From positions 16-64,015 of the forward strand of contig JAZRXS010000086.1 of assembly GCA_045600325.1 (NCBI GenBank): DNA of 64,000 bases, given 5' to 3'. A program made the translations under genes and the position numbers. Source of the stretch: Prevotella sp. Its GTDB lineage: Bacteria > Bacteroidota > Bacteroidia > Bacteroidales > Bacteroidaceae. Below, one piece after another: positions 17,299 through 56,532 of the stretch. Each line of letters begins with the position of its first letter. Position 1 is the first letter of the stretch. The notes below the pieces were generated by a model, which saw only the letters and a list, made by a program, of their open reading frames with translations, was not told where the DNA came from and did no database searches.

Positions 17299-17530
17299 TG
17301 ACAAAATAGTGTCAGTATCCTCGTGCAAATTTATAGGCAATAGAGATGTTTTTGTAATGTATTGAAAACGAGAAGGTTAGGAAAGTGCAAAAAAACTACC
17401 ACGTTTTTGGGTCAAAAACGTGGGGGTTTTGGGTCAAAAGGCTATGAGTTTTTGGGCAAAAGTGCCGAAGTTTTTATCAGCAACTCATAGAGTTACGGAA
17501 AAAGCTGCCTAAACTGACAAAATAGTATCA
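17299..17530 (+). repeat. ~231-bp DR-bounded element with five 22-bp-period units, copy A
   Basis: TGACAAAATAGTRTCA at 17299 and 17515; units at 17392, 17414, 17436, 17458, 17480. Confidence 0.88.
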
Positions 17531-17558
17531 ATGAAAAGGACGCTCAGTCATGGATGTG

Positions 17559-18506
17559 TTATTTCTTGTAATAGCCTTTGGCTTCCGGCATGAACTGCTT
17601 GATGTTGTTTATGCGATTCGTGTTGGACGGGTGGGTTGAAAACCAGTCGCGAGAAGTCGATGATGAGCTTTGTGCCCCCATGCGCTGCCAGAAGCCTATG
17701 GCAGCCTCGGGATCATAGCCTGCCATGGCAGCGATGATAAGTCCGAGGCGGTCGGCTTCCGTTTCGTTAAGTCGCGAGAACTTGAGGTTGGCAAGGGTCA
17801 CTCCCGATGCAGCAAGTATTGCAGCCATGCTTTTTTGCGAGTTGCTCATGTCGTCGTTTGTCAGGATGGCATACAAGGCAGCCACTCCAACGGTAGTCAT
17901 CAGGTTCTTTGTCAACTGCTCTGAGCTGTGCTTTGCTATGGCATGGGCTATCTCGTGCCCGATAACACAAGCAAGCGATGCGTCGTCCTTTGCTGTTGGA
18001 AGTATGCCGGTGTAAACCACAATCTTACCGCCAGGCATGCAGAAAGCGTTCACATCATTGCTTTGCACAACTTTGACAGTCCAATTGAAAGATTTCAGTT
18101 CATCACTCATGCCGTTGTCGCGCATTATCTTTTCAGTAGCCCTTATCAGTCGTTTTGCCACACGATCCACCTGAGCTGTCTGCTGCGCGTTTGTGCAGGC
18201 GCGAGTACTCTTGATGTACGACTGATACTGTTGGTCGCTGTATGGTATAAGGTATTTGTCGGGCACAAGATTATAGAAACTGCGCTTGGTAATAGGCACA
18301 GTGTATTCGTAAGCCTTCACCATGTCGGATTCTGTTATGGTGGACACGGTTTCCTTTGTCTTATTCCACAGTTCCTTTCTCGTGTCAGAGTTCCATGCGC
18401 TCTCTGCCTTGCGCTTCAACCTGCTCCATGTGCTCTGCGAGTAGGCACTCTGCATGGTGAAGCATAGCAAGAAAGTCAGAAGTATAGATGAGTAAGTGCG
18501 TTTCAT
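17559..18506 (-). CDS. M48 family metallopeptidase
   Basis: NAFCMPGGKIVVYTG, GHEIAH, ETEAD, STHP; signal peptide. Confidence 0.92.
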   Translation of the reverse strand: MKRTYSSILLTFLLCFTMQSAYSQSTWSRLKRKAESAWNSDTRKELWNKTKETVSTITESDMVKAYEYTVPITKRSFYNLVPDKYLIPYSDQQYQSYIKSTRACTNAQQTAQVDRVAKRLIRATEKIMRDNGMSDELKSFNWTVKVVQSNDVNAFCMPGGKIVVYTGILPTAKDDASLACVIGHEIAHAIAKHSSEQLTKNLMTTVGVAALYAILTNDDMSNSQKSMAAILAASGVTLANLKFSRLNETEADRLGLIIAAMAGYDPEAAIGFWQRMGAQSSSSTSRDWFSTHPSNTNRINNIKQFMPEAKGYYKK

Positions 18507-18531
18507 TGATTTTGAACGAAAATGTTGAGAG

Positions 18532-19218
18532 TTACTTTAATATAGGTGCCTTGCAGCGTGGGCAGGTGTCGGCATCAAGGCTCACTGTGCTTTGGCAGAA
18601 AACGCAGCAGGTATGTGTGTCGTTAGGTTCTTTCTTCTTCTCGAAAGGTGCGGGGAACTGCGGTAGGAAGCGTATCTCGTCACCAATCTTCAGATAGCGA
18701 TATATTCCTTCATACCCAGTACTCTTATGTGTATGCTTCTTGCCGTTTGTGTCACGGGTTACAATGTAATATTTAGTTCTATCGGGAGCATCATCCTCAT
18801 CATATAATATCAGCTTGTCACGCTTTTCTATCACAGTTCCGATATACGGCTTCTGCAACTTCTGCTTAATGGTAGGATATATTCCAAAACAGAACATTAT
18901 CAAGGAAACTATAGGGCCGTACGTGAATGCCTCTGCAATGGTTATGTCGCTCGAACAAAGCGCATAGATGAGGAATCCCACAATTGGGGCTATTACCACA
19001 AGACATAGAAAGAGGTTTCTCCATCGTCTCTGCATAGCCAGATACGCTTTCATCTCGTCAGAGTCCACTCTTTGGGAATAGCCACCAAAGTTGCGTGAAG
19101 GTGTCGCAACCGCGTGTGAATGTTCCGATTGGCCGACATTCCTTCTTACGGCAGTGCCACATTTGTCGCAAAATGAATCACCGTCATTCAGTTTTGCTCC
19201 ACAGTTTCTACAATACAT
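18532..19218 (-). CDS. Zinc-ribbon domain membrane protein
   Basis: N-terminal CRNCG..FCDKCG, two transmembrane helices, C-terminal CVFC..CPRC. Confidence 0.75.
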   Translation of the reverse strand: MYCRNCGAKLNDGDSFCDKCGTAVRRNVGQSEHSHAVATPSRNFGGYSQRVDSDEMKAYLAMQRRWRNLFLCLVVIAPIVGFLIYALCSSDITIAEAFTYGPIVSLIMFCFGIYPTIKQKLQKPYIGTVIEKRDKLILYDEDDAPDRTKYYIVTRDTNGKKHTHKSTGYEGIYRYLKIGDEIRFLPQFPAPFEKKKEPNDTHTCCVFCQSTVSLDADTCPRCKAPILK

Positions 19219-19274
19219 GAGTCTTTATAAGTTTTTTATTGTTTGACAAGTATCGCCATCATTGAGATGCCTAT

Positions 19275-20006
19275 TTATTCTTCTATCAATTCAAAATGCT
19301 GATAGTCCTTTCGTGTGGTCCAATCACCTCCCCATTCAAAGCCGTTTTCTGTAAACAACTTATAGCACAGGTCGCCCTTTTCTATCTTGTATGGGAATGA
19401 TTTACTGCGGTCAAGGTATGGGGCACCTGTCGCTGGTTCAATGAGTTCTGTTCCATCTTCAAGTATCTTATGATAAGGATTGTAGAGTGTGTTGATGTCT
19501 ATCGCTACACCCTTACCATGTTTCGACACGGTTGTTGTATGGGATATGAAGCGGAAATTGAAACTTGACGAATTGTTGTCACGCATGGTCCTCTCGTCAT
19601 CAGCATCCCAATAGTCAACCAATCGCATCCTTTCTATAGGGTACTTTGCCTTGTACAGTTGGTGCAGAATATTGAGAACAGTAGATGAGATTTTCTTGTT
19701 CACTACCATTTCACCGACAAACGCACGTCCGTTAATATCACGATGCAGACACAAGAGATAGCGTAGATCGCCGCGTGGAATAGTGCAATCTTCCTTGAAA
19801 GATTTGCCCTGCATCAGCGCAAATATCGTGTCTGGAATATCTATGTCCTTGAAGAATGACATTTCCCCTTGGGTTGCTATTGCCGCTTCCGGAACTATTT
19901 GCCCTGGATAAAACACCTGCTTGGGAGTTTCTGGCTCATAGTCGCGACATGACCCAACAATAAATATCAAAAGTAATAACAGTACATAATTTGTTAACTT
20001 CTTCAT
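19275..20006 (-). CDS. M15 family metallopeptidase, lipoprotein
   Basis: NNSSSFNFR, SKHGKGVAIDIN, WGGDW..KDYQHFE; lipobox VGSC; start at MKKLTN. Confidence 0.88.
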   Translation of the reverse strand: MKKLTNYVLLLLLIFIVGSCRDYEPETPKQVFYPGQIVPEAAIATQGEMSFFKDIDIPDTIFALMQGKSFKEDCTIPRGDLRYLLCLHRDINGRAFVGEMVVNKKISSTVLNILHQLYKAKYPIERMRLVDYWDADDERTMRDNNSSSFNFRFISHTTTVSKHGKGVAIDINTLYNPYHKILEDGTELIEPATGAPYLDRSKSFPYKIEKGDLCYKLFTENGFEWGGDWTTRKDYQHFELIEE

Positions 20007-20053
20007 TTGTATTTCTTTGTTTACGAGACTGTTAGCAGTCTCTATGTTAATAA

Positions 20054-20158
20054 TCTCCCCAATAGCTCCTGTCCAAACTGCGGTAGAGAACGGCTTCCTG
20101 GATGTGGCGCTTTTCAACGAGTTCGGAGTTGTCGAGATCTGCTATTGTGCGTGCTACT
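20054..20158 (-). repeat. Displaced duplicate of the comM 3' end (att-like direct repeat)
   Basis: 105 bp, 7 mismatches to 21184-21288, all synonymous. Confidence 0.92.
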
Positions 20159-21107
20159 GTAACACCTTGTTTCGTCTCTGCAAAGCCACAAGGATGCTGC
20201 GCTCTGCCATTGGATTGAGACCGCGGAAGGTGATGTATTGTTTTAGTTTTTTCAATGGAATGTCCAGCAATAGTTTGGCTATACATTCGTCTGCAAAGGA
20301 GTTGGAAACGACATTGACTCCTGTGAAATCCAAGGCTATACGTGTGTCCTCTGAGAACATTGGGCGGAGCTGTTCGCGGATTCTTGCTCCCATTTCACGC
20401 GTGCCGAAGTCTGTGGCAATGTCGCAGAAACGGAATTCACTGGTAGAATTGCCATTTAACCAAAGCGTTTCCAATTCGTCTGTCTCTATGAAGGATTCGT
20501 TATATTGCTCTTCTGCATTAGTGCGATGGTCAACTACATCATTGGGATTTATCTCCTTTGATGTTGTTATCTCCATATACACGATAGTGCCTTGCCAATA
20601 ACCATTCTCAATAACGTCTGTGCTATTATCTTTATGTATCAGCTTGTGATTACCGGAGTGGATTATAAACTGCAAGCCTACATCTTTCATAAGTCGGGAT
20701 GTGGCATAGAGTCCGAAGCCCATTCCTTTGCCATCGGTTACGGAATCCTCAATACACATGCGAATGGCATCGGCCTCAGTGATGTAACGGAATTTTTCAT
20801 TCTCCGCTAACGATTGGCGTATGCCCATGCCGTCGTCTGCCACAAGGACACGAAGCACATCCTTGTCGGCGTCAAAATGAGTTATTGCCGTTCCAAGTGG
20901 TTTGCCTGAATGTATGTGGACATTATCAAGAATTTCATAAAAACAATAGCTGAGAGCTTGCAATACACTCACTTCTATCTCGAAATGATTGGTGAGAGCT
21001 GCAAGAACCTGCTGATACACATCGTTCAGTGTATGGGCATCAAAGACGTCTATTGTTGTGTCTTCAACGCCTTGAAAGTATTGTTTCAATAAAAAAGATA
21101 CGTTCAT
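20154..21107 (-). CDS. HATPase-like + STAS-like (DUF4325-type) protein
   Basis: [10 protein letters not shown] (N-box), [16 protein letters not shown]-terminal [16 protein letters not shown]. Confidence 0.75.
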
Positions 21108-21288
21108 GGCTTCTACATTTTATAATGCTTCTTGTCCAGAAGACAAAATTGAAAATCCGTAAATTGCAAATCCCCTTTACCATTCTCCCCAATAGCTTCT
21201 GTCCAAACTGCGGTAGAGGACGGCTTCTTGGATGTGGCGTTTTTCAACAAGTTCGGAGTTGTCGAGGTCAGCTATTGTGCGTGCTACT
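20159..21288 (-). mobile_element. 1.13-kb cassette integrated into the comM 3' end (no recombinase)
   Basis: Bounded by the duplicated comM 3' end at an offset of exactly 1130 bp. Confidence 0.65.
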
Positions 21289-22733
21289 TTAAGGATGCGA
21301 GAGTAGGCGCGGGCGGAGAGATTGAACTTCTCCATTGCAGTCTTTAGGACATTCATTGCGTCTGGAGTCGGCTCGGCGTATTTGTGGATGAGCTTCTCCG
21401 TCATCTGGGCGTTGCAATAGACACCGGCGTCGTTGGCGAAACGCTTTGTTTGTATTTCACGAGCTGCTACTACACGTGTACGGATATCGCGCGAAGGTTC
21501 GCCGGGTTGCATCTTGGCAAGGTCGTTGAACTTCACGTTCGAACACTCTATCTGGAGGTCGATGCGGTCGAGAAGTGGTCCACTAATCTTTCCGAGATAG
21601 CGCTTTATCTGTCCTGGAGTGCAGTTGCAATCGTGCGTTGGATCGTTGTAATAGCCGCAAGGACAAGGATTCATGGCGGCAACGAACATGAAATTGCAAG
21701 GATAGTCAATGTTATAAGTGGCGCGAGAGATGGAAACCTTATGGTCTTCAAGCGGTTGGCGCATCACCTCAAGCGTCTTTTTATTGAATTCTGGCAACTC
21801 GTCAGCAAACAAAATTCCGTTATGAGCAAGCGAAATTTCTCCCGGACGAGCCACAATGCCGCCTCCACAGAGGGCAACTTGCGAGATTGTGTGATGTGGT
21901 GAGCGGAACGGACGGCGAGTCATCAGCGGCGAACCGCCGGTAGTTGATGCAGGCAACATTCCGGCAATGGAATATATTTGTGTGGTTTCAAGACTTTCGG
22001 CGAGTGTAAGTGGAGGCAAGATTGTAGGCAATCGCTTAGCCATCATGGACTTTCCACTGCCCGGAGGACCAACCATTATCATGTTATGGCCACCCGCTGC
22101 GGCAACTTCCATGGCACGTTTCACGACCTCCTGGCCTTTGACATCCTCAAAATCCACATCAAACTTGATCTCCTCCTCACAGAATTCCTTGCGAGTGTCA
22201 ACGAATGCCGGCTGAAGACCGCGTGGATTGCCGTCGAGAAAATCAATGACTTCCGTGATGTGGCTTACTCCATAAATGGGCAGATTATTGACAACAGCAG
22301 CCTCCCTTTCGTTTTCCTTGGGCACAATCATGCCTGCAAAACTCCTTTTTCGTGCCTCAATGGCTATTGGTAGTACTCCTTTTATTGGCTGTATACTACC
22401 ATCAAGACTCAACTCTCCCAAAAAGAGATAGTTTTTTATGACATCCTTCTCAACCTGACCGTTAAGCGAGAGCAAAGCCATTGCTACAGGAAGGTCGAAC
22501 GCACTGCCTTCTTTCTTCAGGTCGGCAGGAGCGAGATTGATAGTGTATTCTGCTGTCTTCGGAGCTTTTCCTATGGACGTAAGAGCCGCATAGATACGGT
22601 CATGACTCTCTTTAACGGCTGTGTCGCCGAGTCCGGTAAGGTGATAATAAGAGCCAGTCGTACTGAAAGCCTCTACAGTAACTATGGAAACTTCAAGTCC
22701 GTTGAGTGCAGCACTGGATGTTTTTACAATCAT
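21177..22733 (-). CDS. comM: YifB/ComM family Mg-chelatase-like AAA ATPase
   Basis: [51 protein letters not shown]; -7 element at 22809-22816. Confidence 0.95.
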   Translation of the reverse strand: MIVKTSSAALNGLEVSIVTVEAFSTTGSYYHLTGLGDTAVKESHDRIYAALTSIGKAPKTAEYTINLAPADLKKEGSAFDLPVAMALLSLNGQVEKDVIKNYLFLGELSLDGSIQPIKGVLPIAIEARKRSFAGMIVPKENEREAAVVNNLPIYGVSHITEVIDFLDGNPRGLQPAFVDTRKEFCEEEIKFDVDFEDVKGQEVVKRAMEVAAAGGHNMIMVGPPGSGKSMMAKRLPTILPPLTLAESLETTQIYSIAGMLPASTTGGSPLMTRRPFRSPHHTISQVALCGGGIVARPGEISLAHNGILFADELPEFNKKTLEVMRQPLEDHKVSISRATYNIDYPCNFMFVAAMNPCPCGYYNDPTHDCNCTPGQIKRYLGKISGPLLDRIDLQIECSNVKFNDLAKMQPGEPSRDIRTRVVAAREIQTKRFANDAGVYCNAQMTEKLIHKYAEPTPDAMNVLKTAMEKFNLSARAYSRILKVARTIADLDNSELVEKRHIQEAVLYRSLDRSYWGEW

Positions 22734-23003
22734 GGGTTAGTCGTTAGGGAGATTATTCGTTTGGAAGTTTGGAAATTAGTCGATCGTGGAGAATGTAATT
22801 CAACGCTGCAAAATTACATATTTTAAGTGAAAAGGAAAAGATTTGAACAGAAAAAGTACAAAAAGTTTTTGCAATTACTTGCATAATAGCAACTTTAAAC
22901 ACAGAAAAAGACAAACATCGCCAATAAATTTGTCTAAAGCAGAAAAAAAAGCTAAATTTGCACGCGAAAAAAGATATAACCCTCTTAATCACAGAGATTC
23001 AAT

Positions 23004-24128
23004 ATGCAAAAAATACTTCTCTTCATACTTGCCGCGATCTGTGTAAGTAGTTGTTTTAAGGAAGAAGCTATGGAGTCAGAGTGCGATATTCTTCGTGCCA
23101 GCGTGAAGCTTTCCAATCCAGAGGCTGTGTTTTACAGCGCAGCTGATACGGTGGCAATGATAACACCTGACTATGCTTCGAACATCATTGAGTTCCGGAA
23201 TGTGCAGATGAATGCCGACATCACAGCCATGGCACCTCAATTCAGCATTACAAAGAACGCAACGATAGAGCCAAAGAGTGGCACTGTGCTCGACTTCTCG
23301 CAGGGTGGTCAGTACTATACAGTTACTTCGGAAGACAAGCAATGGAGCCGCCGCTATCTCGTGCGCTTTGCGAAACCACAGAGCTTCTATGAGTACAACT
23401 TCGAGAACTATTTCCTGAGCGAGAATGGGAAATATTATGTTTGGAGCGACAATGCTGAAGGCGAAACTCCAAACTGGTGTACTGCCAATGCAGGATTCAG
23501 CGTTGCACGCTCGTCAGCAAAGCCTATGGAATATCCTTCAATACCTGATGAAAACGGATACGAAGGAGCATGCGTGAAACTTCAGACGGTAAGCACTGGC
23601 TCTTGGGGCGTGATGACAAACAAGAGGTTGGCTGCCGGAAACCTTTTCCTTGGCTCGTTCGATTTGTCAAAAGCACTGACGCAGACACTTCAGAGTACTC
23701 ACTTCGGTCTTCCTACTACAAAGAAGCCTCTGCGTTTCACTGGATATTACAAATATAAGCCGGGAGAACAGATGCAAGATGCAAAGGGAAACCTGATAGA
23801 GGGTACTGACGAAGGCGCTATCTATGCAGTGGTTTACAAGAACCACGATGCAGAAGGCAAGTCGGTATATCTCACTGGCGAAGACATCATGACGAATCCG
23901 CTGCGTGTGGCTATGGCAAAACTGTATGACGTGCATCGAAGCGACGACTGGACAAGTTTCGATGTGTCTTTCGATTATTGGGAAGATATTGACATCCAAT
24001 TGCTCCAGAACATGGGATACAGCCTTGCCATTCTTTGCTCTTCAAGCAAGAACGGCGATTTGTATGAAGGTGCATTGGGCAGCACATTATGGGTTGATAA
24101 TTTGCGAATAATAACAGAGGAGGAGTAA
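23004..24128 (+). CDS. PCMD-domain lipoprotein
   Basis: Lipobox VSSC, W.TANAGF, LAAGNLFLGSF, GYYKYKPG, GSTLWVD; TAAATTTG at 22953. Confidence 0.8.
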   Translation: MQKILLFILAAICVSSCFKEEAMESECDILRASVKLSNPEAVFYSAADTVAMITPDYASNIIEFRNVQMNADITAMAPQFSITKNATIEPKSGTVLDFSQGGQYYTVTSEDKQWSRRYLVRFAKPQSFYEYNFENYFLSENGKYYVWSDNAEGETPNWCTANAGFSVARSSAKPMEYPSIPDENGYEGACVKLQTVSTGSWGVMTNKRLAAGNLFLGSFDLSKALTQTLQSTHFGLPTTKKPLRFTGYYKYKPGEQMQDAKGNLIEGTDEGAIYAVVYKNHDAEGKSVYLTGEDIMTNPLRVAMAKLYDVHRSDDWTSFDVSFDYWEDIDIQLLQNMGYSLAILCSSSKNGDLYEGALGSTLWVDNLRIITEEE

Positions 24129-24132
24129 AATC

Positions 24133-24879
24133 ATGAAGAAGATATTATTACTGGCGCTATTGATCTTACAGGTGTCACTTGTTAAGGCACAGTTTCTCGA
24201 GGACGTAAGCGTAGAAGCTCAAATAGGTTACAACATAGGTGGAACAATGCCTCTCGGAATGCCTGCAAGTATTCGTGGGCTAAACTCATATACTCCACAG
24301 CTGAATCCACAGGTAGGAGTAAAGGCGGAAAAGCCTCTCACCGACCAATGGGGAGTAGAAACCGGCGTGAGATTGGACAGAAAAGCAATGAGTACTGATG
24401 CTCAGGTAAAAGGTTACCACATGACAATGAGTAGAGGTGGCGAAGCGATAGAAGGTTACTTCACTGGAAATGTGGTGACGGAAGTTGGCACATGGACATT
24501 GAGCATTCCTGTGGAAATGACTTTCAAGCCAACTGATAAACTGAAGATATATGCCGGTCCATACGTCGGATGGAATATTTCAAGGAATTTCGATGGCTAT
24601 GCCTACGATGGATACATCAGAAAAGACACTCCTACAGGTGAACGCATTGAGTTGGGAAACACTGCTGAAGAGCGAGGTGAATACAACTTCAATGACGACA
24701 TGCGCAAGGCTCAATGGGGAATAAACGCTGGAGTGTCATACAAGCTGACACACGGTCTCGGCATTTATGCCAACCTTGCATGGGGAATGAGCAATGCCTT
24801 CAACAAAGACTTCCGTACAATAGAACAAAAGATGTATCCAATATATGGTACAGTAGGATTAAACTATAAACTTAAATAA
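24133..24879 (+). CDS. Outer-membrane beta-barrel (porin family) protein
   Basis: Signal peptide, GYNIGGTMP, YAGPY, terminal YKLK. Confidence 0.78.
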   Translation: MKKILLLALLILQVSLVKAQFLEDVSVEAQIGYNIGGTMPLGMPASIRGLNSYTPQLNPQVGVKAEKPLTDQWGVETGVRLDRKAMSTDAQVKGYHMTMSRGGEAIEGYFTGNVVTEVGTWTLSIPVEMTFKPTDKLKIYAGPYVGWNISRNFDGYAYDGYIRKDTPTGERIELGNTAEERGEYNFNDDMRKAQWGINAGVSYKLTHGLGIYANLAWGMSNAFNKDFRTIEQKMYPIYGTVGLNYKLK

Positions 24880-24880
24880 T

Positions 24881-25534
24881 ATGAAGAAGATTTTTACTCT
24901 TGTAGCGCTGCTGTCGTTTGCGCTTGTAATGAATGCACAGGATAAGGTACGTACTTATACTGACAATATGGTGGTTATCGTCAACGATGAGTCAACGGAT
25001 CCTATGCCAACAACGATCTCAATAACGGAACAGGCAGATGGTAAGTACACTCTGGCGCTTAACAACTTCATTCTGGTATCGAAGGATGAAGAGAGTGGGG
25101 AAGATGATCCAATGCCTGTAGGTACAATAAGCATCAGCGACCTTGAGCCTGCTGTTGCTGGCGACGGAACATTGTCGTTCAGTGCGGAAAGGGACATCAT
25201 ACTTCAGCCAGGCGATATGGAAGGCGTGGATTTTTGGTTGGGTCCAATACTCTCAGAAGAGTTGGGTGGTATTCCAATCACATTGAAAGCAGACTTGTCG
25301 GCTGACAAAGAGCAACTGTTGGCTGATATAGACATTGACCTCTCAACAGTACTTGGCCAGAAGATTAAAGTTCTCTTCGGACAGGCATTGATTGATAAGG
25401 CTTTGAAGATCAGCGAGGTTAAGTCAGAGAACAATTCCCGTCAGAAGGGTGTCTATAACCTTCAGGGCCAGAAGGTTGGTGCTGATTTCAATGGTATCAT
25501 CGTAGTAAACGGAAAGAAGATTATCAAGAAATAA
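24881..25534 (+). CDS. Calycin-like secreted protein with T9SS-type C-terminal tail
   Basis: Signal peptide; YTLALNNF; C-terminal VYNLQGQKV...IVVNGKKIIK. Confidence 0.65.
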   Translation: MKKIFTLVALLSFALVMNAQDKVRTYTDNMVVIVNDESTDPMPTTISITEQADGKYTLALNNFILVSKDEESGEDDPMPVGTISISDLEPAVAGDGTLSFSAERDIILQPGDMEGVDFWLGPILSEELGGIPITLKADLSADKEQLLADIDIDLSTVLGQKIKVLFGQALIDKALKISEVKSENNSRQKGVYNLQGQKVGADFNGIIVVNGKKIIKK

Positions 25535-25597
25535 TGTGGTTCAACTTTCGCAAGCTCAAGTTGAGGCTAATGGCTAATGACTAATGGCTAATGGCAC

Positions 25598-25636
25598 AAA
25601 AAAGGTAACTATCAGCGATGATAGTTACCTTTTTTT
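25598..25636. terminator. Bidirectional intrinsic terminator
   Basis: AAAAAAGGTAACTATCA-GCGA-TGATAGTTACCTTTTTTT between convergent genes. Confidence 0.8.
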
Positions 25637-25675
25637 ATTATTTTTCGCGTTATCCCAAATGGGCTTTTGGGGTTA

Positions 25676-26512: not shown

Positions 26513-26549
26513 AACTGCATTTATGATTTTATGATGTATGATTTAGTAT

Positions 26550-27416: not shown

Positions 27417-27558
27417 AATTTGCGTGCAAAGTTAGTAATAATTAGTAATATACGATAATCAAATACGGAATATTTTCGTTTTGTGCGTATTTTTTTGCGT
27501 TATATACATTATTTTAAAACAAATAGCATAACTTTGCACGCAATAGAAGAGCAATTGG

Positions 27559-27638
27559 TAACTCAATAATTCAATAACTTGATAACTCAATAATTTAATA
27601 ACTCAATAACTATACATTTCAATAATCCAACAATTCAA
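27559..27638 (+). repeat. Degenerate octamer tandem repeat (TAACTCAA)x10 in a 5' UTR
   Basis: Direct reading. Confidence 0.8.
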
Positions 27639-27642
27639 CATT

Positions 27643-28467: not shown

Positions 28468-28493
28468 TATCAAAACTTTCGGGCGTAGAGGTC

Positions 28494-28599
28494 AAAACTC
28501 TTATGGTTTGAAAAAAGTTCGTATACAAACTCACAACGAGTTTGTATACAAAACTGCTTCGGGTTTGTATACGAACTTTTTTGTAACTCATGGAGATAT
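28494..28599. repeat. GTATAC palindrome array, copy 2
   Basis: GTATAC at 28521, 28544, 28567; outer AAAACTC and GTAACTC units. Confidence 0.8.
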
Positions 28600-28606
28600 G
28601 GGTAAG

Positions 28607-28643
28607 AAAACGCAGACTTTTCATCAGAAAAGTCTGCGTTTTT
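28607..28643. terminator. Bidirectional intrinsic terminator
   Basis: AAAACGCAGACTTTTC-ATCA-GAAAAGTCTGCGTTTTT. Confidence 0.75.
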
Positions 28644-39448: not shown

Positions 39449-39678
39449 TGATACTATTTTGTCAGAATAGCCGTCCGAAATGTAACTCATAGAGTTTTGA
39501 CTAAAAACTCATAGGAAAACGACCAAAAACTCCCAGGGTTTTGACCCAAAACCGTGGGAGTTTTTAGTCAAAAGTCATAGAGTTTTTGATGGGATTTCTA
39601 TTTGTCTGGAAATCAAATAGTTATAAAGACGGGAAATTCGGGGTGGATAAGATAATCGTGACTGATACTATTTTGTCA
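39449..39678 (-). repeat. ~231-bp DR-bounded element, copy B (inverted)
   Basis: TGATACTATTTTGTCA at 39449 and 39663; units at 39482, 39504, 39526, 39548, 39570. Confidence 0.88.
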
Positions 39679-48090: not shown

Positions 48091-48114
48091 TTAATGTATA
48101 AAGAAAAAAGAACA

Positions 48115-49683
48115 ATGAAGAAATATCTTTCTATAATAGCTTGCGCAACACTCGCTCTCGCTTCGTGCGATAGCTACCTTGACAAGCTTCCGGATGACCG
48201 TGCGGAAGTGAATACTGAGGAGAAGGTAAAGAGCTTCCTCGTATCCGCTTATCCTACGATTATCAACAATGTTATTATGGAGACAAGTTCTGACAACGTT
48301 TCAGACTATGGTCGCCAATATGACACTTCCGACCTCAAGGACGAGGCTTACCGTTTCAAGGATATCACGGATACGAGTAATGACTCTCCACGTCATTTGT
48401 GGAATGGCTACTATGAGGCTATTGCAACAGCCAACCAGGCAATTGCTTCTATCGAAGAGATGGGCAATCCTAAGAGCCTTGCACCACAGATGGCTGAGGC
48501 AAAGCTTTGCCGTGCATACTCTATGTTCATGCTTTCCAACACATTCTGCATGGCATACGACCCACAGAAGGCTGACCAGTATGCCGGTCTTCCTTATCCA
48601 AAGGAGCCGGGACTTGTTCTTAATGAACGTGGCACATTGGCAGAACTTTATGCAGATATCGACAAGGATATCGAGGATGCACTCCCATACGTGACTGACA
48701 ACTATGCAGTTCCTAAGTATCACTTCAACACAAGAGCTGCATACGCATTTGCCGCTCGCTTCAATCTCTACTATCATCAGTATGAGAAGTGTGTGAAGTA
48801 TGCTTCCACAGCCCTTGGTAGCGTGCCTTCTTCTGTTATGCGTGACTATACCCAGTACCTTCAGTTTGGTGTTGATGATATTGGCAACAAGTATGTTAGT
48901 GCATCGGATGCGTCAAACTTCCTTCTCATTCCTGCCTACTCAATAACTTGGCGTGCGTTGATGGTTGGTGCTTGGCCACGTTACCAGCATAACTACAATA
49001 TGACTAATTACGAGACTTATTGGGTTGAAGGTCCTTGGGGAGTTGGTTCTTCTGCCAATACTCTCTACTACGCTACAATGCTTTACGGTAGCAACCCTGC
49101 TGTACAGTTCCCTAAGATCAATGAGTTCTTTGAATATACTGACAAGGTTGGTGGTACTGGTTATGTGCATACTGTGCAGACTGCGTTCACTGGCGATGAG
49201 ACCCTTCTCTGCCGTGCTGAGGCATACGCACTTCTCAAGCAGTACGACAACTGCGTTGCTGACCTCAATATCTGGATAAACTCTCACTGTGCTGAAGAGA
49301 AGGATGGTACAAAGCGTCCAGTGCTTACTGTTGATAATATCAATAAGTTCATTGAAAGCATTGAATACGCTCCTGTAACTCCAGAAAGCAACCGTGACCG
49401 TACACTCCGTAAGGTGCTCAATCCACAGGGCTTTACTGTAGAAGTAGGCACTCAGGAAAATCTCATTGAAATGCTTCTTCACATGCGTCGCCTTGAGACA
49501 ATGTTCGAAGGTCTTCGTTTCATGGACATCAAGCGTTACGGTATCGAGTATGCACACGTTGTTTCTGGTGAAGACCCAGTAGTCTTTACTGCCGGTGACC
49601 TTCGCGGTGCGCTCCAGATTCCTGGTGATGTTGTCAATGCAGGCCTTGCTGCTAACCCACGTGAGGTAGTGGCTTCGAAATAA
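48115..49683 (+). CDS. SusD/RagB lipoprotein
   Basis: Lipobox LASC, YLDKLPD, RAYSMF, LCRAEA, RRLE..EGLRF.DIKR. Confidence 0.92.
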   Translation: MKKYLSIIACATLALASCDSYLDKLPDDRAEVNTEEKVKSFLVSAYPTIINNVIMETSSDNVSDYGRQYDTSDLKDEAYRFKDITDTSNDSPRHLWNGYYEAIATANQAIASIEEMGNPKSLAPQMAEAKLCRAYSMFMLSNTFCMAYDPQKADQYAGLPYPKEPGLVLNERGTLAELYADIDKDIEDALPYVTDNYAVPKYHFNTRAAYAFAARFNLYYHQYEKCVKYASTALGSVPSSVMRDYTQYLQFGVDDIGNKYVSASDASNFLLIPAYSITWRALMVGAWPRYQHNYNMTNYETYWVEGPWGVGSSANTLYYATMLYGSNPAVQFPKINEFFEYTDKVGGTGYVHTVQTAFTGDETLLCRAEAYALLKQYDNCVADLNIWINSHCAEEKDGTKRPVLTVDNINKFIESIEYAPVTPESNRDRTLRKVLNPQGFTVEVGTQENLIEMLLHMRRLETMFEGLRFMDIKRYGIEYAHVVSGEDPVVFTAGDLRGALQIPGDVVNAGLAANPREVVASK

Positions 49684-49721
49684 GTAACAAGATTCTTAAC
49701 TACAAAAATAGTAAGATATAT

Positions 49722-50657
49722 ATGAAAATCAAGTTTTTAAGTGCAGTAGCTATCGGCCTTGCTTCTCTTGCTTTCACATCATGTAGCGAGGAAACGCTGT
49801 CTGACACAAGTGTTATTCCTGATGGTAGCTTTGGCCAGACTGCCGAGAATGACAGCGAATTCGACAAATGGATAAAGGACAACTATACAACTCCTTACAA
49901 CATTCGTCTTCAGTATCGCTATTTGGATAAGGAAACCGACCTTACATATAATGTTGTACCTGCCAAGATACCACAGGCAAAGGCTTTGGCTAAGCTCGTT
50001 AAGCACATCTGGCTTGGCACATATGAGGAAGCCATCGGTCAGGACTTCATCAAGACCTATACTCCACGAGTAATCCAGCTCATCGGCTCATACGAGTGGA
50101 ACTCAAACGGCTCTCAGGTGATGGGTACAGCCGAGGGAGGTCTTAAGATCATGCTTTATGGAGTAAACTTCCTTGACATCAACAACCCTCGTATCAATTC
50201 AGACAACCCTTACGAGTCAAAGTCAAGCATTCCTCTTGACCTCAACTACTGGTTCTTCCATACAATGCACCACGAGTTCTGTCACATCCTTACACAAACT
50301 AAGGACTATCCTACAGACTTCCGCACTATCTCTGCCGGCAATTATCATGCTACAGACTGGATTAACGTGAAGGATGAGAACGCTCCAAAGGAAGGTTTCG
50401 TTACAGGTTATGCTTCTGGTGAGTACAATGAAGACTTTGCTGAGCTATATGCAAACTACGTAACACTTTCAGAAGCTGGTTGGCAGAAGATTCTTGACAA
50501 GGCAGATGATGAAGGCAAGGCTATCATCAATCAGAAGCTTGCCATTGTCAAGGAGTACTTCTTGAACAGCTGGGGTGTTGACCTTGATACACTTCGCTCT
50601 ATCGTACTTCGTCGTTCGCAGGAAGCTGTCAAGATGGATTTGCACACTTTGGATTAA
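49722..50657 (+). CDS. Putative zinc-binding metallopeptidase lipoprotein
   Basis: Lipobox FTSC, GTAEGG, HTMHHEFCH, EDFAE. Confidence 0.85.
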   Translation: MKIKFLSAVAIGLASLAFTSCSEETLSDTSVIPDGSFGQTAENDSEFDKWIKDNYTTPYNIRLQYRYLDKETDLTYNVVPAKIPQAKALAKLVKHIWLGTYEEAIGQDFIKTYTPRVIQLIGSYEWNSNGSQVMGTAEGGLKIMLYGVNFLDINNPRINSDNPYESKSSIPLDLNYWFFHTMHHEFCHILTQTKDYPTDFRTISAGNYHATDWINVKDENAPKEGFVTGYASGEYNEDFAELYANYVTLSEAGWQKILDKADDEGKAIINQKLAIVKEYFLNSWGVDLDTLRSIVLRRSQEAVKMDLHTLD

Positions 50658-50692
50658 TGTAGGAGTAACAAACAAGAAAAAAGTAAATTGAA

Positions 50693-52042
50693 ATGAAAAA
50701 ATTATATTATATATTCTCACTTCTTCTTGCAATGGCATTCTCTGCTTGTTCTCCAGACATGGATGAAGTGTTCGACAAGGGAGCTTCAGAACGTGCGGAA
50801 GAAGCTATGCGCAACCTCAAGGAAGTGCTCGTCTCTAATCCTAATGGATGGAGAATGGAATACTATGGTGACATCAACTATGGAGGTTACAACGTGTTCT
50901 GTGCCTTCACAAACGACAGTGTTACTGTAGCAAGTGAGAAGGTTGGCAATACTCAGCCAGCAGGTGTTGATGCTAACGGAAAGCTTATTCGTTGCACATC
51001 ACATTACACTATCGATCAGAGTCAGGGCGTTATTCTCTCTTTTGACGAGTATAACGAAATCTTCCACTACTTTGCTGAACCAAAGAATGCCGATTATGGC
51101 GACTCAGGTGAAGGCTTCGGTGGCGACTTTGATTTCCGCGTAGTTTCAGCTTCTGCCGACTCAATCGTGATGACTGGCAAGAAGAATCAGGCTCGTATTC
51201 GCATGTATCCTATGAGCCAGTCATGGGAAGAATATCAGAAGGTGGTTGACGAGACAGAAAATTTCATGTCATCTCGTTCTTATACACTTCAGGTAGAAGG
51301 TTCTTCACGCGAGATCAATGTGACAACAAACTATCGTTGCCTCTTCTTCACATATTATGATGATGAAGGAAACAAGCAGTCAATAGGTGCTCCTTATATC
51401 GTTACAGAAGAAGGTTACAACTTCTATCGTCCAACAAAGGTTGATGGTATCCAGATTACTGGTGTAGAGAAGGGTGCAACAGATGAGTTCTTCTATCTCA
51501 AGGACGACCACAATGCACGTCTTTTAACATACGTACCTACTTACGCAGAGTCGCTTGAGACAGGTATGTGGTTCATCAAGTATGAAGATCTCGGCGCATT
51601 TGCACAGCCTGCTTGGGATGCTATGCGCGAGTCTCTTAAGACTGCTGGCCCTGGCAAGACGCCAAGCCGTTTGTTCTGGTCGCTTATCGGAACATACGGA
51701 AACAAGATTGGTTTCCACATGCAGGCAGGTCAAGACTACTGCTTCTATGGCATAAAGTTTGCTGTTTCAAACGCAGAAGGCGATGAGGTTAAGCTCACTA
51801 ACTACTCTACAACAGCAAACAAGGCGGGTAAGGACTTCTACTCAAAGTATGGCATGAAGGACGCTCTTGCTGTATTTACTAACACGACAAAGGGTCGTAC
51901 TTTCAAGATTACAGCTGACAACCAGCGTAAGCCTTCTTACCTTCTCCTTACTGATAAGGATGAACCTACAAATGTTATCAAGCTTTGGGCAAATGAAGTG
52001 ACATTCGTTTACGGTGAGCTTGACAACTACGACAAGCAGTAA
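50693..52042 (+). CDS. DUF4302-type lipoprotein
   Basis: Lipobox FSAC, LVSNPNGW, LSFDEYN..HYF, GDFDF; typical position after the peptidase. Confidence 0.75.
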   Translation: MKKLYYIFSLLLAMAFSACSPDMDEVFDKGASERAEEAMRNLKEVLVSNPNGWRMEYYGDINYGGYNVFCAFTNDSVTVASEKVGNTQPAGVDANGKLIRCTSHYTIDQSQGVILSFDEYNEIFHYFAEPKNADYGDSGEGFGGDFDFRVVSASADSIVMTGKKNQARIRMYPMSQSWEEYQKVVDETENFMSSRSYTLQVEGSSREINVTTNYRCLFFTYYDDEGNKQSIGAPYIVTEEGYNFYRPTKVDGIQITGVEKGATDEFFYLKDDHNARLLTYVPTYAESLETGMWFIKYEDLGAFAQPAWDAMRESLKTAGPGKTPSRLFWSLIGTYGNKIGFHMQAGQDYCFYGIKFAVSNAEGDEVKLTNYSTTANKAGKDFYSKYGMKDALAVFTNTTKGRTFKITADNQRKPSYLLLTDKDEPTNVIKLWANEVTFVYGELDNYDKQ

Positions 52043-52114
52043 TAGCTTATTGCGACAAGCAGTAATAGCTTATTGCGACAAGCAATGATAGCTTATTACG
52101 ACAAATAGTAATAC
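52030..52114 (+). repeat. 23-bp tandem repeat (~3.6 copies) spanning the stop codon
   Basis: CGACAAGCAGTAATAGCTTATTG at 52030, 52053, 52076, 52099. Confidence 0.9.
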
Positions 52115-52118
52115 TTCG

Positions 52119-52194
52119 GCTATGGAGGTGAGGTGCTTTTGCATCCCTTCTATAAGGAATTAGTGGCATAATGAAGGCACTCCACCTCCATAGC
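52119..52194. repeat. GGAG-type inverted repeat
   Basis: GCTATGGAGGTG...CACCTCCATAGC; related to 53695-53804. Confidence 0.65.
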
Positions 52195-52245
52195 AATAAC
52201 AGAACAAAATATAAACTAAATAAATACTTTTTAAATTAATTGCTT

Positions 52246-53508
52246 ATGAAAAAGTTTTTACTTTTTGCTTGTGCAGCTGTATTCTCACTTGCAGCAAGCG
52301 CACAGATTGCTGTTAACCCTAAAGTACAGGGTAAGGCAAGCCAGTTGAAGCAGACTCAGAAGATGTCTGTAAACCAGGAGAAGATGGAAAGCTCTGAACT
52401 CAGTGCTTCTACAATCCAGTTTGTTAAGAAGTTTGGCAAGAAGAAGGCAGCTGCAGGTGCAGACATGCTCGTTGGCAGCTATGTTGAGATGAGATATTAT
52501 TCATACGATGATGAGCCAGAGAACAGCCACTTCGAGACAGCTGCTGCTAATATCAAGGACACAACTGTTGTAATAGATGGTGAGCCATACGATTGTCTTT
52601 CTCTCCATATCTTTGATGAGTTTGCAGACGTTATTGGTGAGTACGATCCTGAAACAAAGAAGGTTTATATCCCTGCTCAGCTTTGTTATATAGACGAGGA
52701 GTACGGCTACGGCAAGATGGATTTGTATGGTGTAGGTGATGACGGCTATCTTTCTGATGATGCCATCACTTTCTCTTACGACGAGGAGGCAGGTACACTC
52801 ACTTTGGATCAGTACGGTTGGGCTATTTACATGTCAGATTATGCAAAGGCTAATCCACAGGATCAAAATCCATTCTGGGATATGGCACTTGGCCGTGAAG
52901 ACGCTCTTGCACCGGTAAATGGCTTTATGGAGTACACTGCAAAGGCTGTTGAGGATTGTGATATTTATGTAGAAGACCTTGGCGAGGAAGTAAATGTATT
53001 CAACTTCTGGGGAACAGGTTGTGTAAACATTATTGTCAATGAAGACTATTCTGTATCTATGCCAAACTCTCAGGTTGTAGGTCCTATGTATCTTCAGAAT
53101 GAAGCAGACTATGAGACTTATGGCCATTTCTTCCATGCTTATGCTTTGAATTCAGAAGGAAAAGTTTCTACTGACGCTGAGTATGCAGAAGGTTTTCTTG
53201 TAAACGTTGATTTCCAGACAGGCAAGTTGTCTTTGGCAAAGGTAGGCGAGCCAGCAAATGGTATTTATTTTAATTATTTGGCAAAGGCTTCTTTGTTTGA
53301 TGAAGACGGTTCTGGTTATGGTAGCATTATGAGTGGCAACATTATCGTATATCCTTATGGTTTCTCAGCATCAATGCCATCAGCTATCAAGAATGTAACA
53401 AGCAAGAACGCTGCTTCAAACGCTACTTTCAACCTCGCAGGTCAGCGCGTAAGCCAGAACTACAAGGGTGTAGTTGTTAAGGGCGGCAAGAAGATGCTCA
53501 TGAAGTAA
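52246..53508 (+). CDS. Acidic secreted hypothetical protein with T9SS-type C-terminal tail
   Basis: Signal peptide; ends SAIKNV...FNLAGQRV..YKGVVVKGGKKMLMK. Confidence 0.75.
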   Translation: MKKFLLFACAAVFSLAASAQIAVNPKVQGKASQLKQTQKMSVNQEKMESSELSASTIQFVKKFGKKKAAAGADMLVGSYVEMRYYSYDDEPENSHFETAAANIKDTTVVIDGEPYDCLSLHIFDEFADVIGEYDPETKKVYIPAQLCYIDEEYGYGKMDLYGVGDDGYLSDDAITFSYDEEAGTLTLDQYGWAIYMSDYAKANPQDQNPFWDMALGREDALAPVNGFMEYTAKAVEDCDIYVEDLGEEVNVFNFWGTGCVNIIVNEDYSVSMPNSQVVGPMYLQNEADYETYGHFFHAYALNSEGKVSTDAEYAEGFLVNVDFQTGKLSLAKVGEPANGIYFNYLAKASLFDEDGSGYGSIMSGNIIVYPYGFSASMPSAIKNVTSKNAASNATFNLAGQRVSQNYKGVVVKGGKKMLMK

Positions 53509-53623
53509 TTTATGGTTTCGCAAGCAGTGCTTGCGAAGGGTAAAGGCTAAAGGCTTTTGTTCGCTTCGCGAGGCTGAAGGCTAAAAGCTAAAGGCAAAAG
53601 GCTTTTATAGAAATAGAATAATT

Positions 53624-53656
53624 GCAGCGACTATTCATTTAGTCGCTGCTTTTTTT
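53624..53656 (+). terminator. Intrinsic terminator
   Basis: GCAGCGACTA-TTCATT-TAGTCGCTGC-TTTTTTT. Confidence 0.8.
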
Positions 53657-53694
53657 GTTTATTCGGAATAAAGTTTGTAATTTTGCCGCAAGAT

Positions 53695-53804
53695 ATGGAG
53701 GTGCGGTGCCCTCACCGTACCACATACTATTGGAAAACTTGGTATCCAGTGAAGATTAGAAAACTAATATTGCTAATGGTGTCGTGAGGGCACGACACCT
53801 CCAT
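53695..53804. repeat. GGAG-type REP-like doublet in a 5' UTR
   Basis: ATGGAGGTGCGGTGCCCTCAC...GTGAGGGCACGACACCTCCAT. Confidence 0.7.
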
Positions 53805-56289
53805 GATGAATATGATGAAATCAAATCTAACCCTTATCCTTGTATTGCTTGCGTCTTTGCTCGTATCTTCGGTAGCTTCAGCGCAGAAGATTGACCGCGA
53901 GGCACTTGTTGCACGCAACAATCCGCACGTCACAAAGCTTGACACTATGGCATCGCTCAATGTCGGTAATGGCAATTTCTCCTTCACTGCCGATGTCACA
54001 GGCTTGCAGTCATTCCCTGAACTCTACAAAAACGGTGTGCCACTTGGCACGATGAGCAACTGGGGCTGGCACAGTTTCCCTAACACAAAGAACCTCCGCC
54101 CTGAGGAAGACCTTGAAGAATACGACTTCGGTCATGGTCATAAGGAACTCTATGCCACACAGTTCAAGGTCGATAAGAATGCACCTCTTGCCGAGCAACA
54201 GCGAATGCAACGCAAGAACGATGCGGCAAACTATTTCCGCTCTAATCCGCATCGCCTTCATCTTGGCGTTCTTGGATTCGATTTTCCGAACAATCCATGG
54301 CGTTCTCGTGGCATAAAAGCAGTAAAGACCAATGTCGAAGAGATGGTAGGACCTGGTGAAGCTGTGGCTACAGCTGGCAAGGGAAACGACCCTCTCCGTC
54401 TCTCCCACAAGGGAGAGGGAAACCGTCCGGATGGCACTCTCCCCCTTGTGGGGGAGTTGGAGGGGGTCAACCAGACACTCAACATGATGACTGGCGAACT
54501 CAGCAGCAAGTTCCGCTATGCAGGCAAAGACTATGCCGTTAGTACCTATTGCAATCCTAAGGCTGATCAGGTAGTTGCGCATATCGTCAGCAAGGCTAAG
54601 ACACCGCTCTGCCTCCGTTTCCCATATCCTACAGGCGGTCATAGCGATGACGCTTGCGACTGGTCGGCTAACGACAAGCATTCTACCGTGGTTGTTTCGC
54701 AGACTGCAAATTCAGCTGTTTTGCAGCGAACAATTGATGAGACGACATATTTCGTAACTCTCACCTGGGACGGCAAGGCACAGTTTGCCGAGAAGTCCGC
54801 CAACTATTTCACGCTTACCCCAAAGCAGGATGATTGGAAAGTCTCGGTGATGTATAGCCCCACCCCAACCCTCCCCGAGCGGGGAGGGAGAGTTAAATAT
54901 GACTCAACCACTGACAACACCCGATCAAATACAAATTTAAATTCCTCCCCCCGTTCGGGGGGAGTCGGAGGGGGGCTCTTTGATGCTGTCGCAGCAAAGT
55001 CCGCTGACGTCTGGACAAAGTTCTGGCACAACACCGGCGTTGTGGATTTCTCCGACTGCACTGACCCTCGCGCACCAGAACTGGAGCGCCGCGTGATGCT
55101 TTCCGAATGGCTTCTCGCTACACAATGTGCCGGCAACACCCCTCCTCAGGAGACGGGACTTACATATAACTCATGGTTTGGCAAGTTCCACCTTGAGATG
55201 ATCTGGTGGCATCAGTCATGGCTTGCCCTCTATAACCATCCAAAGAAGGCTGCAAACACGCTGAAATGGTACGAGCAGGCAGAACCTATTGCCAAGGAAA
55301 TCGCTGAGCGTCAAGGATTCAAGGGCGTACGCTGGATGAAGATGACAGACCCATCTGCCACGGAAGCACCGTCAAAGGTGGGTAGTTTCCTTATCTGGCA
55401 GCAGCCACATTATATCTATCTTTCGGAACTTATCAAGCGCACGGCAAAAGCAAAAGGCATGACAGCCGACGACTTCAAGAACTATTCTTCGCCAGAAAAG
55501 ATGTCCGACCTTATCCAGAAGACAGCCGAGTTCATGGCAGACTTCGCCACAAAAGAATACATAGGCACAACCCTCCCCCCTATGGGGGAGTCGGAGGGGG
55601 TCCCTTACCGTTATGTCCTAAAAGGCGTCATCGCAGCACAGGAAACTCTCCGTGCTTCCGAAACCGTAAATCCACCGTTTGAGGTTGCCTACTGGAAGTT
55701 CGCTCTTGAACTTGCACAGAAAGACCGTGAGGAACGCGGCTTGCCACGCAACGAGAAGTGGGACGACATCATCAACCATCTCTCGCCACTAAAGGCAATT
55801 ACTGACGACAATGCCGGCGACGGAAGCATGCTCTACCTTGCTTCAGAGAATGCCCTCGACACCTATACTGATGAACGTTTCACCTCCGACCACATGGCTG
55901 TTCTTGGTGCTATCGGCATACTTCCTGACAGTCGCCTTGTGGACAAGGAGATAATGAGAAACACCTTCAACTGGATTTGGGACAACTGGCGTTGGGAGAA
56001 GACCTGGGGCTGGGATCATCCGATGACAGCCATGTGTGCAGCACGCCTCGGTATGCCGGAGAAAGCCGTTGGCGCACTCCTTATGCAGAAGCGCACGAAC
56101 ACATATCTTCCTAACGGTCACAACTACCAAGACCAGCGTCTGCGCTGCTATCTCCCTGGCAATGGCGGTCTGCTTACAGCCGTTGCCCTCATGTGTGCCG
56201 GCTGGGACGGTTGCACGGAAAAGAATCCAGGCTTCCCAAAGGACGGCAAGTGGAACGTGAAGTGGGAGAACATCTATCCGATGCCATAG
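53803..56289 (+). CDS. Six-hairpin glycosidase-like (GH65-like) protein with three in-frame REP inserts
   Basis: IDREALVARNNP, VGNGNFSFTADVTGLQ, PPQETGL..NSWFGKFHLEM, TWGWD, YLPGNGGLL; exact start among several Met codons and family assignment uncertain. Confidence 0.72.
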   Translation: MMNMMKSNLTLILVLLASLLVSSVASAQKIDREALVARNNPHVTKLDTMASLNVGNGNFSFTADVTGLQSFPELYKNGVPLGTMSNWGWHSFPNTKNLRPEEDLEEYDFGHGHKELYATQFKVDKNAPLAEQQRMQRKNDAANYFRSNPHRLHLGVLGFDFPNNPWRSRGIKAVKTNVEEMVGPGEAVATAGKGNDPLRLSHKGEGNRPDGTLPLVGELEGVNQTLNMMTGELSSKFRYAGKDYAVSTYCNPKADQVVAHIVSKAKTPLCLRFPYPTGGHSDDACDWSANDKHSTVVVSQTANSAVLQRTIDETTYFVTLTWDGKAQFAEKSANYFTLTPKQDDWKVSVMYSPTPTLPERGGRVKYDSTTDNTRSNTNLNSSPRSGGVGGGLFDAVAAKSADVWTKFWHNTGVVDFSDCTDPRAPELERRVMLSEWLLATQCAGNTPPQETGLTYNSWFGKFHLEMIWWHQSWLALYNHPKKAANTLKWYEQAEPIAKEIAERQGFKGVRWMKMTDPSATEAPSKVGSFLIWQQPHYIYLSELIKRTAKAKGMTADDFKNYSSPEKMSDLIQKTAEFMADFATKEYIGTTLPPMGESEGVPYRYVLKGVIAAQETLRASETVNPPFEVAYWKFALELAQKDREERGLPRNEKWDDIINHLSPLKAITDDNAGDGSMLYLASENALDTYTDERFTSDHMAVLGAIGILPDSRLVDKEIMRNTFNWIWDNWRWEKTWGWDHPMTAMCAARLGMPEKAVGALLMQKRTNTYLPNGHNYQDQRLRCYLPGNGGLLTAVALMCAGWDGCTEKNPGFPKDGKWNVKWENIYPMP

Positions 56290-56301
56290 ACGAGATAAAA
56301 A

Positions 56302-56532
56302 TGACAAAATAGTATCAGTCCCCTTTTGCTCTTTCATGGGCAAAAGGGGATTTTTGTATCTCGTTGAAAATAAAGACGTTAGGAGTGCCTTCAAAAACTC
56401 TATGAGTTTTGGGTAAAAAACGTGGGAGTTTTGGTGCAAAACCGTGGGAGTTTTTGGTCAAAAGTCATAGAGTTTTGATGCGTAACTCTATGACTTACGG
56501 TTTGGAACCTCGGGAATGACAAAATAGTATCA
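56302..56532 (+). repeat. ~231-bp DR-bounded element, copy C
   Basis: TGACAAAATAGTATCA at 56302 and 56517; units at 56394, 56416, 56438, 56460, 56482. Confidence 0.9.

Follow-up and report, generated by a model that had tools for sequence, protein, structure and literature searches.

A dispersed repeat with near-invariant direct repeats and phase-locked length in two gut Prevotella-like genomes

Repetitive extragenic palindromic (REP) sequences are defined in PMC3333891 as stem-loop units of 20–40 nt with a 5′ GTAG-type tetranucleotide, and in the bacterial interspersed mosaic element BIME-1 of Escherichia coli a REP, a linker bearing a site for integration host factor (IHF) and an inverted REP follow one another (PMC3333891, PMC3184786). 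In the Bacteroidales, the BrickBuilt repeat of Porphyromonas gingivalis, a composite of MITE (miniature transposable element with inverted repeats) and minisatellite, has IS5-type terminal inverted repeats and a variable number of units (84–991 nt), as described in PMC4596501. This report deals with a dispersed element of about 231 bp, three copies of which lie in a stretch of 64,000 nt of contig JAZRXS010000086.1 of a Prevotella genome (assembly GCA_045600325.1); the whole of this stretch is hereafter called the window. In its presumed working the element is most like BIME-1, but it does not appear to belong to the REP/BIME, MITE or BrickBuilt families. What is new in this repeat family, which is real, undescribed and tightly constrained, are the direct repeats at its ends, the IHF-like site and the phase-locked geometry. 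No description of it was found in the literature, subscription papers lying outside the search, and an Rfam scan of the window at gathering thresholds returned tRNA only.

The carriers are two uncultured gut bacteria with incomplete genomes, namely the assembly holding the window (G000; 3.05 Mb in 215 contigs, 76% complete; contigs numbered with C belong to it unless otherwise marked) and a sister genome (G200; about 3.2 Mb, 86% complete), of which 2.13 Mb and all element loci entered the comparison. SusC/SusD-type genes place the window in the Bacteroidales, and its host is probably Prevotella-like. The median protein identity of the two genomes is 89% and their four-fold sites are 55% identical, i.e., the neutral difference is 45%. 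From the three copies in the window a first-pass annotation had expected many per genome. Indeed, the exact 16-bp repeat occurs 50 times in G000, always as a member of one of 25 direct pairs (23 spaced by 213–217 bp, the other two by 225 and 226 bp), far more than chance allows, as the reversed control sequence gave none. G200 contains 58 exact, five one-mismatch and four two-mismatch repeats, corresponding to 31 complete elements and one solo repeat with a right-end-like flank. The 25 and 31 complete copies, initially gathered through their repeats, were pooled for the anatomy; distances between segments were taken from a gap-penalised alignment of these 56 copies, and total spacing was counted without alignment.

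Read from the left, the element consists of a 16-bp repeat, 55 bp, an IHF-consensus site lying in a dyad, 37 bp, five near-palindromes at a period of 22 bp, 18 bp and the same repeat again. The distance from repeat to dyad is 54–57 bp in 51 of the 56 copies and 65–66 bp in the other five, that from dyad to first unit is 36–38 bp in all of them, and that from fifth unit to repeat is 17–18 bp in 55 and 39 bp in one. The exact 22-bp spacing of the units first reported for the window holds in most copies (219 of 224 steps), with one 21-bp step in each of five copies, all from G200, and a period of 22 scores 53.5 as against 32–38 for periods of 20, 21, 23 and 24. The spacing between repeats, counted without alignment, is 213–217 bp in 50 copies, 224–226 bp in five and 238 bp in one, with nothing in between; the six longer copies represent about four independent events on a tree, each near one or two whole helical turns. 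While spacings are fixed in this manner, interiors are on average only 56% identical within G000, 61% within G200 and 55% between the two genomes, which upholds the initial view that geometry is kept rather than sequence. The 16-bp repeats deviate at 8 of 1792 bases. They are quasi-palindromic (TG...CA) and direct in all copies; the claim that terminal inverted repeats are absent needs amending, since 10 of the 16 positions of the repeat agree with its reverse complement, which makes the ends imperfect inverted repeats as well. In a scan for dyad plus array that made no use of the repeats, both repeats were intact in 23 of 35 matches in G000 and at random level in the other 12, and were intact in 9 of 10 matches in the G200 tiles, the tenth being the 238-bp copy. 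Terminal repeats are all-or-none in dyad-plus-array loci.

The left half of the dyad fits the E. coli IHF-type consensus with at most one mismatch in 45 of the 56 copies as against 3.4 in shuffled sequences, and the right half fits it less well. Across the array, the periodicity of A/T tracts peaks at 11–11.75 bp. Unit cores are found in both orientations (22 vs. 18), and the recurrence of identical cores inside single elements above expectation (44 vs. 28 ± 5, reached in 3 of 1000 shuffles) suggests local conversion or template switching among units. The three copies in the window were confirmed where the first-pass annotation had placed them, their direct repeats being separated by 216, 214 and 215 bp, and have the following parts:

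17299–17530, plus strand: copy 1, complete element of 232 bp, with the 5′ region of atpD on one side and, 28 bp off on the other, the stop codon of a gene for an M48 peptidase
17299–17314, plus strand: copy 1, left direct repeat (TGTCA variant)
17355–17379, plus strand: copy 1, dyad, its left half matching the IHF consensus with one mismatch
17392–17496, plus strand: copy 1, array of five 17-bp near-palindromes with a 22-bp period
17515–17530, plus strand: copy 1, right direct repeat
39449–39678, minus strand: copy 2, complete element of 230 bp, with the stop codon of a gene for an esterase 14 bp off on one side and the 3′ end of a tRNA gene on the other
39663–39678, minus strand: copy 2, left direct repeat
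39599–39623, minus strand: copy 2, dyad, its left half a perfect match to the IHF consensus
39482–39586, minus strand: copy 2, array of five units with a 22-bp period
39449–39464, minus strand: copy 2, right direct repeat
56302–56532, plus strand: copy 3, complete element of 231 bp, following an 828-aa gene, whose stop codon is 12 bp off, and 215 bp ahead of a SusC-like gene
56302–56317, plus strand: copy 3, left direct repeat
56318–56351, plus strand: copy 3, left-linker hairpin with a 14-bp stem including G-U pairs, followed by a T run, terminator-like and found in a subset of copies only
56357–56381, plus strand: copy 3, dyad, its left half matching the IHF consensus with two mismatches
56394–56498, plus strand: copy 3, array of five units with a 22-bp period
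56517–56532, plus strand: copy 3, right direct repeat

The dyad is present in each copy, with 0-based starts of 56, 55 and 55 instead of the 54–55 given at first, and the five 17-mers lie at the described offsets of 93, 92 and 92 and match 8–14 of the 14 fixed consensus positions.

Like BIME-1 as portrayed in the sources cited above, the element is extragenic, dispersed and multicopy, has two conserved terminal units around a linker with an IHF consensus (a predicted site), stands as single copies, varies among relatives and has a proposed role in structuring DNA. It differs in that its terminal units are direct 16-bp repeats with neither GTAG foot nor stem-loop, whereas the REPs of BIME-1 are inverted, and in adding the five-unit 22-bp array and the phase-locked length. 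Moreover, no Y1 (RAYT) transposase gene is flanked by the element at the four G000 loci inspected; Y1 genes are present, and one of those in G200 lies 2.4 kb, or one gene, from an element. With BrickBuilt the element shares the order Bacteroidales, intergenic copies (about 20 in BrickBuilt) with unique flanks and an array of units of about 22–23 bp, but the unit sequence is different, and the element always has five near-palindromic units, a fixed length and direct terminal repeats (PMC4596501). As for MITEs, filled and empty orthologous sites were seen, whereas target duplication and near-identical copies were not found, the ends are imperfect inverted repeats (10 of 16 positions), and a search of the two incomplete genomes for rve and IS110 enzymes of insertion sequences (IS) found none. 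In P1 parS, lambda attP and the accessory sequences of Xer recombination, binding arms flank an IHF-type bend and the spacing tolerates whole helical turns only; these sites are single-copy and have a known linked protein. The element, by comparison, has 25–31 copies per chromosome and no linked gene. Repeat-less arrays within the genus have the same A4-N9-T4-N5 frame and 22-bp period, sometimes with the same dyad nearby, and differ from the element in having no terminal direct repeats, fixed five-unit number or fixed length.

The copies in the window lie just past gene ends, as first described, with the nearest stop codons 28, 14 and 12 bp away, and both orientations are present within these 64 kb. 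By our own crude calls of open reading frames (ORFs), a stop codon is no more than 45 bp away from 37 of the 56 copies (42% expected, p = 3e-4), and a start codon from 7 of them (45% expected). The element may turn either of its ends to the stop (20 vs. 22); gene 3′ ends are preferred whichever way it points. The repeat of several copies provides the adjacent stop codon or overlaps it, and in the G200 counterpart of copy 2 the TGA of the repeat stands exactly where G000 has its native TAG. Neighbouring genes are ordinary core and metabolic genes. The suggestion of a segregation site, taken as a polar motif of the KOPS/Chi type, found no support, as no replichore bias was seen: 10 of 25 and 12 of 20 copies lie on the positive-skew side, a weak test on short contigs. 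Synteny breaks at 5 of 8 and at 1 of 3 gaps that hold an element and, among the remaining large gaps, at 23 of 66 and at 20 of 52, numbers too small to call a rearrangement hotspot.

Six of the 31 elements of G200 stand at sites where G000 also has one. Three of these pairs look inherited, with variable-column identities of 0.40–0.48 (85th–95th percentile of between-genome pairs) and a single difference among the 96 bases of their repeats, as compared with 45% at neutral four-fold sites. Two others have unrelated interiors, and one of these, at the site of window copy 2, is inverted, the G200 element being complete and in the opposite orientation. In the remaining pair (C130:6969–7200 and L139) the elements are 93.5% identical, with flanks at 79–88% and neutral sites at 55%, and since the identity of the element exceeds that of its flanks, a recent transfer between the two species or a conversion is suggested. 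The statement that most shared sites have replaced interiors was dropped after calibration against neutral divergence, three of the six fitting inheritance, two not, and one being unexpectedly close. Loci persist, because an element or an array is present in G000 at 12 of 23 gene ends that carry an element in G200, and at 13 of 305 of the remaining large gaps (p = 2e-9). One complete element has a clearly empty counterpart (C35, 307 bp vs. 54 bp in G200), as do repeat-less arrays, and a further orthologous empty site corresponds to C53 (256 vs. 107 bp); the flanks are too diverged for the junctions to be read. At the latter (L268, the counterpart of C53:37203–37433), a 9-bp tandem repeat stands in place of the element. 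Turnover is slow, as seen from the empty sites and from the two shared sites whose interiors are unrelated, one being inverted.

The reading that we favour, tentatively and with a probability of roughly 45%, is that the host maintains the element as a BIME-like nucleoprotein loop of double-stranded DNA at the 3′ ends of genes, and that it spreads slowly in the way of BIMEs. An IHF- or HU-type protein would bend the DNA at the dyad, protein dimers would coat the five units phased at 22 bp, and a predicted sequence-specific protein bound to both 16-bp repeats would close a loop of about 215 bp, which the host would keep next to gene ends (3′) to structure its chromosome or to insulate supercoils. 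Spread would presumably take place by occasional copying of whole elements together with local conversion of units, by analogy with the BIMEs of E. coli. The whole-turn length variants, the IHF-type site, the two-turn phasing, the strand-indifferent units and the intact repeats at old sites argue for a wrapped double-stranded complex in which the repeats would have to face each other. To this extent the bent nucleoprotein platform proposed earlier is supported by the helical-turn variants, the IHF-like site and the units in both orientations. Several points weigh against the favoured reading. The complete form was encountered in only 2 of 401 genomes of the genus searched, so any role for the host would be confined to the lineage or replaceable. 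Copies come and go: of the gene ends with a G000 element, 11 of 15 are empty in the part of G200 covered, as are 11 of 23 in the reverse comparison, and two of the six shared sites have the unrelated interiors mentioned above, one inverted. Elements cluster by genome (6 label changes vs. 18.7 in shuffles), which fits mobility as well. Conservation of the repeats could stem from gene conversion instead of selection, and the copies were initially gathered through these repeats. The bias toward 3′ ends may only reflect where insertions are tolerated. The ORF calls are crude, and both binding partner and function are predictions from sequence.

It is possible, if on balance doubtful, that the element is instead a non-autonomous mobile element whose 16-bp repeats serve as the ends on which a trans-supplied recombinase or transposase acts, with the IHF site and phased array building the transpososome or intasome that joins the ends; geometry would then be kept because only intact copies move. 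The empty sites at C35 and C53, the complete element in opposite orientation at the copy-2 site, the genome-specific subfamilies, the solo repeat of G200 with its right-end-like flank and the overlap of the repeat with stop codons in several copies are all in line with such mobility. Furthermore, in three of four gut metagenome runs, contigs (4 in X1, 10 in X2 and 7 in X5) match from the repeat's first base onwards and are unrelated in their flanks, which indicates that relatives carry the element at other loci, and the repeat shares 11 bases with a Tn7 end as printed in PMC1475584, a weak lead only. On the other hand, abutting duplications of 3–10 bp occur in 1 of 56 copies and the mean shared word (3.45 vs. 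3.34 ± 0.12 in shuffles) betrays no target duplication, conservation fades across 2–3 bases outside both repeats instead of stopping sharply, the closest pair of copies within a genome is 89% identical (means of 56–61%), and repeats are intact at old inherited sites. A co-occurring cognate recombinase, which the first-pass annotation proposed to look for, was not found: of three tyrosine recombinases in G000 and five in G200, the sole common one is of XerC/D size (the name being our own inference), serine recombinases are present in G000 only, neither genome has an rve or IS110 transposase, and no integrase is among 61 G200 neighbour proteins (NCBIfam) or the window neighbours. An enzyme may be missing because the genomes are 76% and 86% complete. 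Plasmids and phages gave no match, 72 viral loci with a single 16-mer contain no element, and metagenome contigs gave no paired match and 56 single ones, none with the element. No repeat-to-repeat joint was seen among the listed contigs of five of seven metagenome runs, which derive from related organisms and cannot show rare excision. The earlier proposal of a non-autonomous mobile element is thereby left with the empty sites and one inverted copy on one side and, on the other, the want of target duplication, near-identical burst and cognate enzyme. A bolder version, in which the element represents a new class of minimal mobile DNA with the entire synaptic complex present in cis (a bend by IHF, five accessory sites in phase and two recombinase ends), excised as a minicircle of about 215 bp or moving whole in either orientation by host proteins only, homing to stop codons without target duplication, seems unlikely.

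The remaining explanations were judged less credible still. That the ~11-bp-phased A/T tracts form a bendable arm of about 110 bp downstream of genes, positioned by repeats and IHF site as a built-in strong topoisomerase (gyrase) site, appears improbable. It agrees with the periodicity of 11–11.75 bp over the array and with E. coli, in which the arms of the gyrase motif have a period of 10.75 bp and gyrase cleaves more often downstream of genes and at BIME-2, as reported in PMC6379681, and the A4-N9-T4-N5 frame persists with different, lineage-specific cores in 19 of 300 genomes of the genus. However, the reversed control pattern also matched 9 of 300, and shape readout leaves the near-invariant 16-bp pair unexplained. 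An attP-like site with arms at its ends and crossover at the dyad, one of the original suggestions, is very improbable, in spite of a lambda-like size and layout of accessory sites. Also in its favour, a one-mismatch repeat on C61 heads a truncated left half that breaks mid-dyad, but the break leads into another repeat family and not into an integrated element; there are no attL/attR half pairs, every exact G000 repeat sits in a complete pair, and the dyad, besides fitting the IHF consensus, also occurs without repeats in many genomes of the genus. Least credible is a structured RNA or terminator module on the upstream transcript. Single copies fold better than shuffles (z of −2.8 to −5.0) and folding energies of −9 kcal/mol or better are reached by the left linkers of 21 of the 56 copies, many of which form terminator-like hairpins that include G-U pairs; yet the three folds differ, neither strand yields a consensus fold in the alignment of copies, the stop may be faced by either end, the hairpins have no significant link with the sense orientation (12 of 25 vs. 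9 of 31, p = 0.17), and there is no Rfam match.

If the element is a looped site, as favoured here, it would belong to a kind of sequence-specific chromosome-organising sites barely known in Bacteroidales and offer a handle on both the widespread repeat-less 22-bp arrays of the genus and the unexplained expansion of the HU family in Bacteroidetes; if it moves, it would be a mobile element with neither target duplication nor known enzyme. Because the repeat provides a precise 16-bp bait and the 56 natural variants show which distances matter, one pull-down could name the binding protein. HU-HIG proteins were considered as binders and set aside, as there are 10 and 8 matches in G000 and G200, yet 3 and 9 in two genomes with no complete element, and an array lies just upstream of 1 of the 10 G000 HU-type matches. 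PMC5499826 argues that HU-HIG proteins are unlikely to be sequence-specific. The array in question, a repeat-less one at C144:825–941 directly upstream of the HU-HIG gene C144:986–1388, is a possible autoregulatory site.

Beyond the two carriers, none of 36 genomes of the genus contains the exact repeat, and one of 24 others from the order has it a single time; full-length BLAST matches to a complete copy were obtained in G200 only among 400 other genomes of the genus. A paired-repeat scan of the genome collection returned 30 loci, all in one assembly, which is not counted as a further carrier. Short BLAST matches in many other genomes of the genus fall on the dyad or the units; the dyad alone (query bases 53–81) is matched in about 15 of them and may be a widespread stand-alone IHF-type motif, as these matches suggest. 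A profile of the 25 copies also finds in G000 70 loci (E ≤ 0.01) with arrays and no terminal repeats, or 64 at E ≤ 0.001 with a joint profile. Around these arrays no other repeat pair longer than 12 bp was seen among the G000 matches listed, and other loci of the genus have no repeat pairs outside the arrays themselves. Terminal repeats are present at none of the inspected non-carrier loci, four of which have the dyad nearby. The triple of A4-N9-T4-N5 was matched in 3 of 200 genomes across the order, and the unit-specific pattern in 2 of 300 genomes of the genus, G200 and G287. The G287 locus (L083, on G287:C54) is an array with the same unit core and neither repeats nor dyad, upstream of an ORF presumably resembling a phage-type replication protein. 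A second module with a 22-bp period, made of two or three palindromes centred on GTATAC, is joined to repeat-less arrays in G000 and at several loci occupies the place where G200 has a complete element; it is found on the following contigs:

C6, C40, C61, C97, C135, C140, C144, C163, C189, C205 and C209 of G000: GTATAC-centred module

Lesser observations concern the surroundings of individual copies. The only solo repeat provides, with its TGA, the stop codon of a 201-aa gene of unknown type within a 1.8-kb insert of G200 relative to G000 (positions 1466–3307 of L122, G200:C42:10600–14800), in which an extra sigma-70 factor gene follows; the G000 counterpart has a dyad-plus-array at C95:6485–6600. 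The family that interrupts the truncated element at its dyad (C61:25990–26271, with copies on C192, C113, C37 and C104) is non-coding, about 240–280 bp long and 89–95% identical, and has a more widespread inner part of about 95 bp. Finally, a short stretch of 7-bp-unit repeats upstream of the SusC-like gene (window positions 56660–56720) draws very many metagenome contigs, i.e., it is another common repeat.

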